IMG/VR virus record: IMGVR_UViG_2778261571_000006
Source: a virus
Lineage: Duplodnaviria; Heunggongvirae; Uroviricota; Caudoviricetes
DNA: 6,249 nucleotides
Reading direction: 5' to 3' (one strand)
Part shown: in pieces, positions 1 to 6,249 of the stretch
Numbering within the stretch: position 1 is the stretch's first letter
Layout of the letters: each line of letters begins with the position of its first letter
Position numbers and translations under genes: made by a program
Notes under the pieces: generated by a model
Seen by the model: the letters and a program-made list of their open reading frames with translations, nothing else
What the model was told of the DNA's origin: nothing
Database searches by the model: none

Positions 1-38
1 ATTTGAAAACAAGAACCTCGCTTAGGCCTGTGTCCATA

Positions 39-308
39 TTACGTGGGTAGGATCACATCACGCAGAACATCATTTTCAGCTTTCGCATCAGCTAACTCCT
101 TCGTGTATTTTGCATCGAGCGCAGCAACATCACGCTGACGCATCTGCATGTCAGTAATTGCCGCGTTCGCCAGCTTCAGTTCTCTGGCATTTTTGTCGCG
201 CTGTTCTTTGTAGGCGATGGCGTTATCACGGTAATGATTAACACCCCATGACAGGCAGACGACGATGCAGATAACCAGAGCGGAGATAATCGCGGTTACT
301 CTGTTCAT
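39..308 (-). pseudogene. Rz-like i-spanin, C-terminally truncated (about 89 aa instead of about 150)
   Basis: ORF 39..320(-). The likely true start is the ATG at 306-308, which overlaps the endolysin TGA stop (ATGA). The N-terminal hydrophobic segment ([19 protein letters not shown]) and [30 protein letters not shown] core match lambdoid Rz as I recall it. The reading frame ends abruptly (…[12 protein letters not shown]), where canonical Rz continues about 60 more residues. Confidence 0.6.
53..88 (-). pseudogene. Rz1 o-spanin remnant (first 11 codons only, embedded in Rz in the +1 frame)
   Basis: Hand translation of the minus strand from the ATG at 86-88 gives [11 protein letters not shown] followed by TGA. 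This matches the start of the lambdoid Rz1 signal peptide but stops before the lipobox. The break coincides with the Rz truncation point. Confidence 0.45.
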
Positions 309-667
309 TGCTGACCCCACAAACAGATTTCACGCTCAATCTCACGACGAGTCATGAGACCTTTCCATTGCTTACCGCCAGCATATGTCCAGCGACGTAG
401 CTGATCACATGCGCCTTTGATATCGCCCTGGTTTATTTTGCGAAGAAGCGTCGATGTTCTGAAATTGCCAGCACCCACGTTGTAAACGAATGAGTAAAGA
501 GCGCCGCGCGTTGTTTCCGGTATATCGACTTTGATGTACGGGTTAATTTGTCTGGCGACCGTGGCAAGGTCTTTATTCAGGAGGGCTTTGCATTCTGCTT
601 TGGTATACGTTTTACCGAGCATGATGTCTTTTCCTGTATGCCCGTGACATACAGTCCATACACCAAC
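305..667 (-). pseudogene. SAR endolysin (phage 21 R-type lysozyme), 3' portion downstream of the IS2 insertion
   Basis: ORF 305..802(-); the residues encoded from 667 down to 305 ([28 protein letters not shown]…EICLWGQQ) read as a lambdoid lysozyme. The ORF's first about 45 residues are encoded by the IS2 left end and are not part of the original gene. Confidence 0.9.
663..667. repeat. Target-site duplication, left copy (CCAAC)
   Basis: The 5 bp immediately outside the IS2 left end are identical to the 5 bp at 1999-2003 outside the right end. Confidence 0.8.
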
Positions 668-758
668 TAGACTGGCCCCCTGAATCTCCAGACAACCAGT
701 ATCACTTAAATAAGTGATAGTCTTAATACTAGTTTTTAGACTAGTCATTGGAGAACAG

Positions 759-1124
759 ATGATTGATGTCTTAGGGCCGGAGAAACGCAGACGGCGTACC
801 ACACAGGAAAAGATCGCAATTGTTCAGCAGAGCTTTGAACCGGGGATGACGGTCTCCCTCGTTGCCCGGCAACATGGTGTAGCAGCCAGCCAGTTATTTC
901 TCTGGCGTAAGCAATACCAGGAAGGAAGTCTTACTGCTGTCGCCGCCGGAGAACAGGTTGTTCCTGCCTCTGAACTTGCTGCCGCCATGAAGCAGATTAA
1001 AGAACTCCAGCGCCTGCTCGGCAAGAAAACGATGGAAAATGAACTCCTCAAAGAAGCCGTTGAATATGGACGGGCAAAAAAGTGGATAGCGCACGCGCCC
1101 TTATTGCCCGGGGATGGGGAGTAA
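759..1124 (+). CDS. insC: IS2 OrfA (InsC), transposase N-terminal DNA-binding component
   Basis: ORF 714..1124(+); the likely true start is the ATG at 759 ([40 protein letters not shown]…), which is preceded by GGAGAACAG. Helix-turn-helix-like N-terminus. 121 aa. Confidence 0.9.
1076..1082 (+). other. Programmed -1 ribosomal frameshift site (A AAA AAG) joining OrfA and OrfB
   Basis: The heptamer A_AAA_AAG sits in the OrfA zero frame (GCA AAA AAG). A -1 slip continues into the OrfB frame (…K K V D S A R A L…). This is the standard IS3-family arrangement. Confidence 0.7.
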
Positions 1125-1987
1125 GCTTAGTCAGCCGTTGTCTCCGGGTGTCGCGTGCGCAGTTGCACTTCATTCTCAGACGAACCGATGACTGGATGGA
1201 TGGCCGCCGCAGTCGTCACACTGATGATACGGATGTGCTTCTCCGTATACACCATGTTATCGGAGAGCTGCCCACGTATGGTTATCGTCGGGTATGGGCG
1301 CAGCTTCGCAGACAGGCAGAACTTGATGGTATGCCTGCGATCAATGCCAAACGTGTTTACCGGATCATGCGCCAGAATGCGCTGTTGCTTGAGCGAAAAC
1401 CTGCTGTACCGCCATCGAAACGGGCACATACAGGCAGAGTGGCCGTGAAAGAAAGCAATCAGCGATGGTGCTCTGACGGGTTCGAGTTCTGCTGTGATAA
1501 CGGAGAGAGACTGCGTGTCACGTTCGCGCTGGACTGCTGTGATCGTGAGGCACTGCACTGGGCGGTGACTACCGGCGGCTTCAACAGTGAAACAGTACAG
1601 GACGTCATGCTGGGAGCGGTGGAACGCCGCTTCGGCAACGATCTTCCGTCGTCTCCAGTGGAGTGGCTGACGGATAATGGTTCATGCTACCGGGCTAATG
1701 AAACACGCCAGTTCGCCCGGATGTTGGGACTTGAACCGAAGAACACGGCGGTGCGGAGTCCGGAGAGTAACGGAATAGCAGAGAGCTTCGTGAAAACGAT
1801 AAAGCGTGACTACATCAGTATCATGCCCAAACCAGACGGGTTAACGGCAGCAAAGAACCTTGCAGAGGCGTTCGAGCATTATAACGAATGGCATCCGCAT
1901 AGTGCGCTGGGTTATCGCTCGCCACGGGAATATCTGCGGCAGCGGGCTTGTAATGGGTTAAGTGATAACAGATGTCTGGAAATATAG
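1082..1987 (+). CDS. insD: IS2 OrfB (InsD), DDE transposase catalytic component, expressed mainly as an OrfAB fusion
   Basis: ORF 1082..1987(+), 301 aa, GTG-initiated in the track ([13 protein letters not shown]…). Contains integrase-core-like motifs (…WCSDGFEF…, …[11 protein letters not shown]…, …ESNGIAESF…). Overlaps OrfA in the -1 frame. Confidence 0.9.
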
Positions 1988-1998
1988 GGGCAAATCCA

Positions 1999-2003
1999 CC
2001 AAC
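1999..2003. repeat. Target-site duplication, right copy (CCAAC)
   Basis: Identical to 663-667. IS2 is known to make 5-bp duplications. Confidence 0.8.
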
Positions 2004-2138
2004 AATATCTTTGTATGGTATGTAGCTGACACCTTCCAGACCATCGTTACCACTTGGGCCAGTGATTAACACTGATGCTATAGCAATTGCTCCGCCACCA
2101 ATAGCAGCAGCAACGGCTTTTCGTAATGATGGAGGCAT
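1999..2138 (-). pseudogene. SAR endolysin (phage 21 R-type), 5' portion upstream of the IS2 insertion
   Basis: ORF 1821..2138(-). The N-terminus [47 protein letters not shown] is a Gly/Ala-rich signal-arrest-release segment. The start ATG at 2136-2138 overlaps the holin stop (TAATG). Removing IS2 and one TSD copy rejoins this to 305..667 in frame: 140 + 363 - 5 = 498 nt, i.e. 165 codons plus stop. Confidence 0.9.
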
Positions 2139-2353
2139 TATTCACCTCTCGCAGCCTTGCGCTTATCTTCTTTAATCTTGAAATAAAGGTTTGTCAGGTA
2201 CGTCAGCAGGCCAAATACCAGACTACCCAGCACACCGATTGCAGCCCACTGTGACGGAGTTACTCTATCGAGCAACTGTAAAAACCAGTAGCCAGCACTG
2301 CCTGCGGAGGTGCCGTAGGCAATGCCTGTTGAAATTTTGTCCATGGATTTCAT
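2138..2353 (-). CDS. Pinholin (phage 21 S-type class II holin) with dual start Met1/Met4
   Basis: ORF 2138..2410(-). The likely true start is the ATG at 2351-2353, preceded by GGAGGTGAGGCT, giving [26 protein letters not shown]…[12 protein letters not shown] (71 aa). Two transmembrane segments and a charged C-terminus. Met1-Lys-Ser-Met4 matches the antiholin/holin dual-start motif. Confidence 0.85.
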
Positions 2354-2604: not shown

Positions 2605-3000
2605 CTAACCTCGCATGTCAAAGCCAGATTTCTGAAAATCTCTGTAGACTTCCGGATTGTTGAAGGCCGGAAATTTGGCTTTATGAGCTGCGGACTTTAT
2701 CGCTTCGCAATAGGCTTTATCACCGTTACTGGTAGATATTTTTAACGCCGTGCCATCCTGAGAGAATTCCATATGCAACCTGCATTTTTTCCCTTTCCAG
2801 TTATGCGGCTCATCAAGTTTGGCATTAATTGCAGCTCTGATTCCCCGCGCTTGCGCCCCCCATTCATCCTGATCATCCCAGCGTCCTGAACTGCAACTAC
2901 CTGTAGCAGTAGTTTTGTGGCAATCTGAAGGGTGTAAAGGTGTGCATCCCGCAACAAAACCGACCCAAAAAGTCAACATAACGATTTTCTTTAATCCCAC
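2605..3000 (-). CDS. Outer-membrane lipoprotein with a divergent TolA domain III-like C-terminal domain
   Basis: ORF 2605..3000(-), 131 aa, GTG start preceded by GAGGAG at 6-nt spacing. Signal peptide MGLKKIVMLTFWVGFVAGC with lipobox VAG-C and Thr at +2. The C-terminal region (…KGKKCRLHMEFSQDGTALKISTSNGDKAYCEAIKSAAHKAKFPAFNNPEVYRDFQ…) has the same Cys, Gly-Asp and PEVY..F spacing as the neighbouring paralog and TolA. Confidence 0.7.
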   Translation of the reverse strand: MGLKKIVMLTFWVGFVAGCTPLHPSDCHKTTATGSCSSGRWDDQDEWGAQARGIRAAINAKLDEPHNWKGKKCRLHMEFSQDGTALKISTSNGDKAYCEAIKSAAHKAKFPAFNNPEVYRDFQKSGFDMRG

Positions 3001-3150: not shown

Positions 3151-3579
3151 TCAGGGTTTAAAATCCAGCACCCCATTTTGAAATACTTTATATACTTCCG
3201 GCGAAGGGGGGGCAGGTATATCAGCATTCTTTATCGCATTCATCGCTTCACGACATAAATCGAGGTCTCCACTTTCTCTTTTAACCTCCAGTAGAAGGCC
3301 ATTCGGGGCCATATGCATTCTCAGTGTACACTCTTTTCCTGAATACTTACTCGCATCCCCGAACTGTTTTTCGATGGCGCTCTTGATTTGATGGGCATAC
3401 AGACGGATATCCTCACTAACATCAGAAGTACGTTCAGATGAACTCACATACTGTGTCTCTATTGCTTTATCGGAGTAATATGATGTACGGTCATGATAAT
3501 TTGTCGATACAGCATCAGTGCACCCGATAATAATCCCACTAATAATCAACGTAAGAATTGATGCGCTACGAAAACCCAT
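3151..3579 (-). CDS. Outer-membrane lipoprotein with a TolA domain III-like C-terminal domain
   Basis: ORF 3151..3579(-), 142 aa, ATG preceded by GAGGAAAA. Signal peptide MGFRSASILTLIISGIIIGC with lipobox IIG-C and Thr at +2, then a Ser/Thr-rich linker. The C-terminal about 85 residues (IRLYAHQIKSAIEKQFGDASKYSGKECTLRMHMAPNGLLLEVKRESGDLDLCREAMNAIKNADIPAPPSPEVYKVFQNGVLDFKP) align closely with the E. coli TolA C-terminus as I recall it (…QIKSAIESKFYDASSYAGKTCTLRIKLAPDGMLLDIKPEGGDPALCQAALAAAKLAKIPKPPSQAVYEVFKNAPLDFKP). Confidence 0.8.
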   Translation of the reverse strand: MGFRSASILTLIISGIIIGCTDAVSTNYHDRTSYYSDKAIETQYVSSSERTSDVSEDIRLYAHQIKSAIEKQFGDASKYSGKECTLRMHMAPNGLLLEVKRESGDLDLCREAMNAIKNADIPAPPSPEVYKVFQNGVLDFKP

Positions 3580-3638: not shown

Positions 3639-3696
3639 ACAGCGAATCAGATCAAATAAAACGCACATTTGTTAACATTTACACAAAGTCTGCGTG

Positions 3697-3717
3697 GGAT
3701 ATTCTGAAAGAATATCC
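3697..3717. promoter_or_regulatory. Perfect 21-bp palindrome GGATATTCT-GAA-AGAATATCC (candidate operator)
   Basis: 9-bp arms with a 3-bp spacer, about 60-100 bp upstream of the candidate lipoprotein promoter. No adjacent T-run on either strand, so it is not terminator-like. Confidence 0.35.
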
Positions 3718-4170
3718 ATAATGTGGAGAGAATCTATTGAAGTGCATGGTGCCGGGTGCCTCCCGGTGAACAAAATGTTCGTGATACCTGTCGGCGACAG
3801 AAAAGGTTAATGGTATCACCCCACCGCACAGGGGGATTCACCATGCAGGAGTTTTCTTAGCAAACTCACTGCGCGCCCGGCAACTCCCAACCACATAAAA
3901 TGCGGAGTTTGTGGTATTTATGCATATAACTCGCAGGAATTATCTTAAAAAACTGATGTCGATCCGGATTAAAAAGAAGCAGGTCATCATCAGATGACTG
4001 GAAAAAAGGAAAACAAAAAATACTCATCATACAGTTTTGATTGCAGGGATGAGCCTGCTATGCACAATATGCAGAATATAAGCAAGATAAAAATATGCAG
4101 GCATATTATTTCGGATTTTGTTATTAACACAACCTTTTTAATAATCATTTGGCATACAATAAACCAGCCC

Positions 4171-4623: not shown

Positions 4624-5166
4624 TCAAGCCATTTTCTCAGCAAATGATTCACGCATGGGAATATATAGGGCATACTCAGCAACAGCTAACCAATTAGCAA
4701 TCCGTTTTTCGCATGTGCTAAAACACCACTCTGGGTGTGCATCATTTAGCAATTCAGCCATTTTGCGCTTAGTCATCCCCCGCCCTTCATAGCGTTGCCG
4801 GAGAATGCAAATCAATCCTGGATGCTCTGCCAGCACCTCACTTATGACTCGATCAATACATAACGCCTCTGCATCAGTACAATGCGCCAGCCAGCTCTTT
4901 TGCTTGCCGTTGATCATCTCTCGCAAAAACGCTTCCAGCTCAGCTTTCTCTATTCCCGCTTTTTTCATTCTGCGCAGGGCTTCATTAATGGCTGTTTTCG
5001 TCAGTTTTTTGGATGCCAACAACTGATTGAACATATTCCCTGACCTGCCACCGCCAATATACGACCAGCGCCCCCACATACGTAGTTTTCCCTGAATCCA
5101 GACACTTTCCAGCGTGGTGAGGCGAAGGTGTTCTCCGCTTTTTCCTGTATTCGTTGGGTAAATCAT
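4624..5166 (-). CDS. Candidate late-gene antiterminator (Q-like, phage 82/21-type); family assignment uncertain
   Basis: ORF 4624..5166(-), 180 aa, ATGA-overlapped with the upstream gene. It is the last gene before the terminator and leader region that precedes the lysis genes, which is where Q sits in lambdoid phages. It has an RMWGRW motif reminiscent of the ERWGAW motif I recall in Q82-family antiterminators, and several Cys residues. Confidence 0.5.
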   Translation of the reverse strand: MIYPTNTGKSGEHLRLTTLESVWIQGKLRMWGRWSYIGGGRSGNMFNQLLASKKLTKTAINEALRRMKKAGIEKAELEAFLREMINGKQKSWLAHCTDAEALCIDRVISEVLAEHPGLICILRQRYEGRGMTKRKMAELLNDAHPEWCFSTCEKRIANWLAVAEYALYIPMRESFAEKMA

Positions 5167-5453
5167 AAATGACCTTTCTTTCTCCAGATTTCTTGTGTGC
5201 GAAAAACCCCTTCAGCATGCATCAGGCGCAATTCTTCTTTGGTGTAATCGCTGGTTTTTACCCGCCCGTCGATTAGATCGTGGCATGAGCTACAGGCTAT
5301 CGCCGCCTGCATATCGTGTGGTTTTGTCGCTGTTCCGCACGTCCCCGCCAGCCTGTAATGCGCCAGCACAGAGGTTTCGGGATTGTGATTGCAGTAGCCA
5401 GGGATTCTGATCTGGCACATCTGGCCTTTAGCCGCTTTACGTAAATTCACCAT
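5163..5453 (-). CDS. YbcO-like DUF1364 protein (Cys/His-rich, putative metal-binding nuclease of the nin region)
   Basis: ORF 5163..5453(-), 96 aa: MVNLRKAAKGQMCQIRIPGYCNHNPETSVLAHYRLAGTCGTATKPHD…ACSSCHDLID. This resembles the cryptic-prophage YbcO protein as I recall it (same length, conserved CQ.RIPG.CN.NPETSVLAH motif). Confidence 0.7.
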   Translation of the reverse strand: MVNLRKAAKGQMCQIRIPGYCNHNPETSVLAHYRLAGTCGTATKPHDMQAAIACSSCHDLIDGRVKTSDYTKEELRLMHAEGVFRTQEIWRKKGHL

Positions 5454-6052
5454 TACGCAAACTCCAGTAGTTGTGCGGCCACATTTTCAACTTCCTCCTG
5501 AGAGGAGAATTTACGGAACAGAATCCAGTTCCACAGCACATTCAGTACAGATTTATAAACCTGCTGAAACTCGACTTCGTCCATATTCGCAAAAGCGATG
5601 GATTTTGCCCGACGCCCACGGCTACCGTCCGGATAAATATGCTCGGTGTAAAATCCGGCCTGAATGGTTACCCACTCGCGGAAAGCCTCAAACGACTTTA
5701 GCAACGCCGTATCCCGGGTTCTACGAGTCGCAACGGTGTTAAGGTATTGCTCTGCGGCATCACTCAGGGCTGGCGTGTGTTCCCGACCAACTGATTCGCA
5801 CAGGTAATCAACGAAACCAGACAGCAGTTCTCGTTCGCGAGGCGTGATCGCCCCACCGACCGGAGTCCAGTAATCGAATCCCAGTTGCAGGAGTTTGAAA
5901 AAACGCTTGTGGAATGCGTAGTTACGCACACGCTTAAAGTCTGCGTGTATCCACTCACCTATTTTGATTTGATGCAGAAAATCGCAACTCTCCGGCGTCG
6001 CCGGGAGAAGTAAACCAGAAGAAGTTTGTTTGACCAGTTGTATATGCGCCAT
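5453..6052 (-). CDS. Phage nin-region protein of unknown function (possibly DUF1367 family)
   Basis: ORF 5453..6052(-), 199 aa. Its stop overlaps the start of the downstream DUF1364 gene, consistent with translational coupling. Long uninterrupted frame with codon usage matching its neighbours. The family name is from memory and is not verified. Confidence 0.6.
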   Translation of the reverse strand: MAHIQLVKQTSSGLLLPATPESCDFLHQIKIGEWIHADFKRVRNYAFHKRFFKLLQLGFDYWTPVGGAITPRERELLSGFVDYLCESVGREHTPALSDAAEQYLNTVATRRTRDTALLKSFEAFREWVTIQAGFYTEHIYPDGSRGRRAKSIAFANMDEVEFQQVYKSVLNVLWNWILFRKFSSQEEVENVAAQLLEFA

Positions 6053-6194: not shown

Positions 6195-6249
6195 GGTAAT
6201 GACTCCAACTTATTGATAGTGTTTTATGTTCAGATAATGCCCGATGACT
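6195..6249 (-). mobile_element. IS1 end (terminal inverted repeat), element continues beyond the window
   Basis: GGTAATGACTCCAACTTATTGATAGTGTTTTATGTTCAGATAATGCCCGATGAC matches the IS1 terminus including the InsB 3' end. Only this end is visible. Confidence 0.85.
6210..6249 (-). CDS. insB: IS1 transposase InsB, C-terminal codons only (partial at window edge)
   Basis: The minus strand reads …VIGHYLNIKHYQ* with the TAA stop at 6210-6212, which is the InsB C-terminus as I recall it. Confidence 0.7.
   Translation of the reverse strand, partial: VIGHYLNIKHYQ

Follow-up and report, generated by a model that had tools for sequence, protein, structure and literature searches.

An endolysin gene R (rrrD) of the phage 21 type was interrupted, in our preferred reading, by a single IS2 insertion into a Rac-type prophage remnant, an event that would have occurred once, in the ancestor of a small Escherichia coli clone, and been inherited since as a null allele. 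We give this reading a probability of about 0.9. The insertion lies in a stretch of viral DNA of 6249 nucleotides, hereafter the window, whose features are collected in Table 1. IS2 would have entered by copy-out/paste-in transposition into a CCAAC pentamer at codons 46/47 of R, duplicating 5 bp and placing 1331 bp between the residues D44 and T50. Only a 105-aa product would then be possible, leaving the muramidase null. Later in the history of the clone, an IS1 would have been inserted upstream of the DUF1367 gene, an extra IS3 would have been gained in the genome F467, and the DNA between IS3 and IS2 would have been lost in S171-1 and EC20-72C-1. In practice, the clone would have lost one copy of a cell-wall hydrolase that might harm the cell itself, and not a phage life cycle.

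Table 1. Features of the 6249-nt window, in order of position
Feature	Position	Strand	Remarks
IS3, terminal 55 bp	1-55		inserted in Rz/Rz1; same sequence as the annotated IS3 end of F467 and S171-1
i-spanin Rz, 5' fragment	56-308	-	codons 1-84 of 154, after which IS3 interrupts the gene
SAR endolysin, 3' fragment	305-667	-	third base of codon 47 to stop; T50 and rest of GH24 fold
Target duplication, left copy	663-667		CCAAC
Complete IS2 (IS3 family)	668-1998	+	1331 bp; transposase genes antisense to the lysis operon
IS2 orfA (InsA/InsC)	759-1124	+	121 aa; identical to K-12 InsC1; Pfam HTH_Tnp_1, E 1.8e-19
Slippery heptamer A AAA AAG	1076-1082	+	in zero frame of orfA; -1 frameshift gives the OrfAB transposase
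IS2 orfB (InsB/InsD)	1082-1987	+	301 aa; DDE integrase core; Pfam rve, rve_3, HTH_21
Target duplication, right copy	1999-2003		CCAAC
SAR endolysin, 5' fragment	1999-2138	-	codons 1-46 plus 2 nt; SAR domain, E35, D44
Pinholin, phage-21 type	2138-2353	-	intact, 71 codons, dual start MKSM; Pfam Phage_holin_2_1, E 2.1e-35
DUF1133 gene	4624-5166	-	weak similarity to antiterminator Q
YbcO-type nuclease gene	5163-5453	-	
DUF1367 gene	5453-6052	-	
IS1, terminal 55 bp	6195-6249		border of the remnant, upstream of the DUF1367 gene; matches the IS1A ends of L001 and L004 at 100%

The IS2 element

The first-pass annotation, made from the letters of the window, had described a complete IS2 of 1331 bp between identical CCAAC copies, with both transposase reading frames and the frameshift heptamer intact, and had taken it for the product of a simple transposition with an intact 5-bp duplication. 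All of this was borne out, down to the coordinates. The element starts with TAGACTGGCCCCC, finishes with GGGGCAAATCCA and fills exactly the space between the two pentamers. Its terminal inverted repeats are imperfect, its target duplication is direct, and it combines a length of about 1.33 kb with overlapping orfA and orfB joined by a -1 frameshift, a helix-turn-helix in OrfA and a DDE (rve) core in OrfB; the A6G frameshift site and the 5-bp repeat are those described for IS2 (PMC3299598). The copy to compare it with is IS2A of K-12 MG1655, which lies in yaiX and shares its length, its orfA, the A6G site, the DDE orfB and a 5-bp duplication within a gene. The two differ in their target gene and at five bases (1326/1331 identical, 99.6%), one of the substitutions falling in the left inverted repeat and two residues of OrfB being changed (V30F and L74Q relative to K-12 InsD1, in the frame that opens at 1082 in the -1 register).

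Copies identical to the window IS2 are present in F467 and DXMF6-3R, and in two RefSeq genomes PGAP labels the element as an intact IS2 transposase with programmed frameshift. Because the identical 1331-bp copy of DXMF6-3R sits at a different locus, the window IS2, which is intact, is probably still mobile. The substitution in the left inverted repeat is an A-to-G change at window position 699 (IS2 position 32); for the same reason it does not seem to block transposition. Perfect 5-bp repeats also flank 11 other complete IS2 copies that we examined, the S171-1 copy being truncated and the repeats of the MB06173 copy having been confirmed separately. A 5-bp match has a chance of 1 in 1024, but the existence of a natural empty site (see below) makes chance irrelevant as an explanation of the CCAAC match.

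The interrupted endolysin and its lysis cassette

Deleting positions 668-2003 in silico yields a minus-strand open frame of 498 nt, 165 codons and a stop, just as had been proposed for excision of the element with one copy of the repeat. The same uninterrupted arrangement exists in nature: DXMF6-3R (L003) carries a single CCAAC at this place, between a left flank of 100% and a right flank of 99.93% identity, and of 5426 complete E. coli genomes 3881 have the site uninterrupted. Along its entire length the rejoined gene shares 99.8% identity with endolysin genes from isolated lambdoid phages. Its product matches Pfam Phage_lysozyme (PF00959, E 1.3e-45) and aligns from end to end with intact SAR endolysins, the comparison by which the first-pass annotation had proposed to be judged: 164 of 165 residues, over residues 1-165, are identical to the phage 21 enzyme R21 (PDB 3HDE) and to RrrD of DLP12 (4ZPU). 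Residues 1-103 equal those of the phage 21 enzyme in 3HDE, and a single residue differs in the entire protein. With R21 (3HDE/3HDF) and RrrD it shares the SAR segment, a weakly hydrophobic, Gly/Ala-rich stretch at N-terminal residues 8-26, and the residues E35, D44 and T50, which form an E-X8-D-X5-T motif at residues 35-50, the catalytic triad of lysozymes as defined in PMC9239132.

What sets the window gene apart from R21 and RrrD is that IS2 splits it after codon 46, turning it into a pseudogene from which no enzyme is possible. This position had been given correctly to within two bases, as the duplication, GTTGG on the coding strand, comprises codon 46 (GTT) and the first two bases of codon 47. 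The reading frame that remains encodes 47 native residues followed by 58 from IS2 and ends at 1821; a search for exact matches to this 105-aa fusion yielded one metagenome contig, of 515 bp. Since the insertion separates D44 from T50 and thereby splits the catalytic motif, the endolysin is expected to be inactive, in agreement with the loss of function first proposed, and R::IS2 can safely be regarded as a null allele of the muramidase. IS2 should also be polar on the downstream Rz/Rz1 genes, judging from the layout of the operon.

Immediately upstream of R lies its expected partner, a pinholin gene of the S21 type (Pfam PF04971) whose stop overlaps the start of the endolysin (TAATG) and which is annotated as essD in the relatives. 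Downstream, IS3 cuts Rz, so that the lysis cassette bears a second, independent lesion; beyond the IS3, F467 has the C-terminal portion of Rz together with a fragment of Rz1 (rzoD) that is truncated. The consequence drawn in the first-pass annotation, loss of host lysis, was overstated with respect to R itself, because the pinholin is intact and losing R would stop lysis and not killing. The pinholin of phage 21 is lethal on its own once triggered (PMC9239132), and the intact one of the window could, given transcription of the late operon, still kill the cell by depolarising it, leaving the wall intact without R. Prophage essD, rrrD and rzoD are reported to be SOS-induced and to damage the peptidoglycan of E. 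coli (PMC12287860), and the loss of R may, as a hypothesis, be mildly beneficial.

Prophage context and order of events

The window ends inside IS3 and IS1, and its wider prophage context is therefore read from relatives that are 99.9-100% identical to it. In relatives with 99-100% identity the cassette occupies the Rac site, between ttcA and uspF/ompN, directly upstream of trkG. The closest of them, S171-1 and EC20-72C-1, differ from the window by one mismatch in 5204 nt and carry a remnant of about 13 kb with the order pinR-tfa'-ynaK'-trkG-Rz'-IS3...IS1-hokD, in which we found no integrase, repressor, replication or virion genes. Judging from this company, the surrounding prophage is a Rac-type cryptic remnant that would be non-inducible: with no virion, repressor or integrase genes nearby in the close relatives, there is nothing to induce. 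Rac of K-12 occupies the same ttcA to uspF/ompN site and has the same neighbours, trkG, ynaK, tfaR and pinR. It lacks the entire stretch seen here through a deletion from ydaW to rzpR that took Q, S and R with it and left the order ydaW, rzpR remnant, trkG, whereas the version in the window has kept this stretch, broken by IS3, IS2 and IS1. On the far side of IS1, S171-1 and EC20-72C-1 have hokD and not the Rac early region. In K-12, hokD belongs to the Qin prophage, and this junction suggests a deletion or a rearrangement between Rac and Qin.

Whether the insertion was strain-specific had been raised at the outset, and it is not: the same IS2 event is present in three complete genomes, F467 (France), S171-1 (pangolin, China) and EC20-72C-1 (fish, Viet Nam). 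F467 (OY754409) has both junctions and an identical IS2, and its flanks, compared over 67-102 bp on either side, are identical too. S171-1 and EC20-72C-1 retain the right junction only, with IS3 abutting IS2 position 379. In these two genomes (L004 7087-8070 and L020, respectively) the IS3-IS2 join corresponds to a deletion of window positions 56-1045, which removes the 5' fragment of Rz, the 3' fragment of R and the left third of IS2. The IS3 in Rz is common to the window and all three genomes; the IS1 upstream of the DUF1367 gene occurs in the window and in S171-1 and EC20-72C-1 and is absent from F467, which has an extra IS3. The exact combination of IS3, IS2 and IS1 seen in the window occurs in no complete genome of our collection.

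From this distribution, the IS2 insertion predates at least three later IS-mediated events, namely the IS1 insertion, the extra IS3 of F467 and the IS3-IS2 deletion, and the window shows a small E. coli clone, with samples from France, China and Viet Nam, in its undeleted form. IS2 had been called a relatively recent arrival. On an evolutionary scale this stands, because the repeats are perfect and the IS2 is identical to a copy elsewhere. IS2 may have entered a cassette that was no longer functional.

Recurrent IS2 targets in endolysin genes

We searched for junctions in both orientations, inspected the sequence of 14 loci and arrived at about 22 separate insertions of IS2 type that lie within or beside S-R-Rz cassettes of the phage 21 type, in several different prophages. 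This number is partly counted from offsets, eight further insertion offsets entering it by offset alone, and the independence of the lineages is not taken from a phylogeny. Two IS2 subtypes are involved, the classical one and a variant that shares about 95.5% identity with it. The CCAAC pentamer at codons 46/47 was hit in four independent events. One is that of the window clone, in Rac and in + orientation. Another, also in + orientation, is found in MS1657 and VTB96929v, within a P22-like prophage with head genes, its IS2 differing at 7 positions and its flanks being 86-94% identical. The remaining two are in - orientation: in MB06173 and SW071618 a 95% IS2 variant with a nested IS3 lies in Rac, and in S1-CAM-02-A a 97.9% variant lies in a prophage with iss and nohD that resembles DLP12. 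The pentamer GTTAC (2046-2050, codons 30/31) was the target of three events (162.2, c1-17 and OY757949 in + orientation; E9 and CM2, each in -), and TTAAC (2066-2070, codons 23-25) of two (2018-01-1CC in +; strain 165 and three other genomes in -). Single IS2 hits correspond to window positions 228, 463, 551, 638 and 2488. For 22 events spread over about 925 positions, 10 coincident pairs are seen versus 0.25 expected (Poisson P about 2e-13).

Target choice by IS2 is known to be non-random and has been linked to DNA curvature, without a sequence consensus (PMC3299598). In our literature search we found no description of the CCAAC, GTTAC or TTAAC sites, and nothing specific on IS2 in endolysin or rrrD genes. 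We give even chances to the proposition that these three pentamers, within 70 bp of each other, form a cluster of IS2 hot spots in the first third of the R gene, used in both orientations and in at least three prophage backgrounds, through which E. coli would repeatedly and convergently disarm R, the structure of the target DNA setting where the element lands and selection against a leaky, holin-independent muramidase perhaps aiding the persistence of the alleles. The site in the window was probably chosen because this stretch of R is a preferred IS2 target. The clustering on pentamers does not by itself separate target preference from selection. Such recurrence means that sharing a site is, alone, no evidence of common descent and no clonal marker.

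Two other patterns were considered; the first was dropped and the second retained as no more than an idea. Nearly all copies retrieved in the first searches had the orientation of the window, and this apparent bias arose because the search joined pieces on the same strand only; a query in the opposite orientation returned as many events. An octamer, GGGCCAGT at 2056-2063, is the reverse complement of the left terminus of IS2 and lies between the GTTAC and TTAAC hot spots, but such mimicry of the inverted repeat occurs at the rate of chance, with 4 matches of 8 nucleotides to the IS2 ends across the window versus 3.5 expected.

Alternative explanations

A rival that follows on from the conclusion of the first-pass annotation is that IS2 entered an otherwise functional lambdoid prophage recently and in one strain only, so that an inducible phage would have been made unable to lyse its host. 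The perfect repeats, the intact IS2, flanks that match the empty-site genome and the intact holin and Q-like genes would all fit it. It is nevertheless improbable and largely refuted: Rz is cut by IS3 and an IS1 end closes the other side of the window, the nearest relatives have only the 13-kb remnant devoid of integrase, repressor, replication and virion genes, and three complete genomes, each from another country and host, have the insertion in common. The claim that it prevents host lysis on induction presupposes an inducible prophage and is overstated in this context. That the assembler misplaced IS2 is next to impossible. IS elements are a common cause of misassembly, but F467, an independently assembled complete genome, has both junctions and two more genomes have the right one, and an exact 5-bp duplication is the signature of a real transposition. 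Lambdoid prophages recombine often, and R::IS2 could have been acquired ready-made by homologous recombination from another prophage, such as the P22-like one of MS1657, where site and orientation are the same. We consider this very improbable and reject it on the sequence differences, as the MS1657 copy departs from that of the window at 7 IS2 positions and its flanks at 21/363 and 20/140 bases, the nearest difference on the left lying at window position 641, 26 nt from the junction. The window flanks, moreover, match the Rac-type empty site of DXMF6-3R, and exchange of this kind cannot produce the copies found in opposite orientation at the same pentamer.

A further proposal concerns the persistence of the insertion and is compatible with a single inherited event in the Rac-type remnant. 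SAR endolysins are exported by Sec and can be released without a holin, and leaky or SOS-driven expression of R in a cryptic prophage could be costly enough for knock-outs to be selected. The recurrence of IS2-type insertions around S-R-Rz cassettes in several prophages, the deletion of the same genes from K-12 Rac and the SOS-induced peptidoglycan damage by essD, rrrD and rzoD (PMC12287860) speak for such an advantage. We still find it doubtful, since any cost must be small if the uninterrupted site is kept in most of the complete genomes surveyed, and the clustering on three pentamers is better explained by target preference, given that a knock-out anywhere in R would serve. A single insertion, inherited within the clone, remains our explanation for the window.

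Significance

R::IS2 is an ordinary event of an already annotated kind, and its components (IS2, R21/RrrD, the S21 pinholin and Rac) are all known; the RefSeq/PGAP annotation of the same structure places IS2 between two rrrD pseudogene fragments. IS5 in lomR of K-12 Rac and IS2 in yaiX belong to the same class, an IS in a non-essential gene annotated as a split pseudogene, and present no difference that matters. What the window adds is a view of how IS elements eroded a lysis cassette step by step in a single clone, in which IS2 in R and IS3 in Rz, in either order, would have been followed by IS1 and then by the IS3-IS2 deletion, in contrast to K-12, where the same genes went in a single deletion. 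The three recurrent pentamers offer a compact natural substrate for the study of IS2 target choice, so far loosely ascribed to DNA curvature, and this hot-spot pattern is the only part of the work that might repay further effort.

Other contents of the window

A scan for tRNAs found none in the window, and a scan for promoters and terminators gave no enrichment over shuffles. A match to the Rfam small RNA STnc100 at 3690-3876 on the minus strand scores 86.6 bits against a gathering score of 47, and lies in a gene-free stretch of about 1 kb that runs from the Q-like gene to two genes for TolA-like lipoproteins. These are paralogous small ORFs, at 2605-3000 and 3151-3579, both on the minus strand, with TolA C-terminal domains and, by inspection, the N-terminal lipoprotein signal motifs VAGC and IIGC. 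They sit between the antiterminator-like and holin genes, the usual place of accessory ('moron') genes in prophages, and our guess is that they might block the entry of Tol-dependent colicins or phages. Annotations of the second one disagree: in strain 162.2 it counts as a full gene, elsewhere as a pseudogene truncated at its N-terminus.
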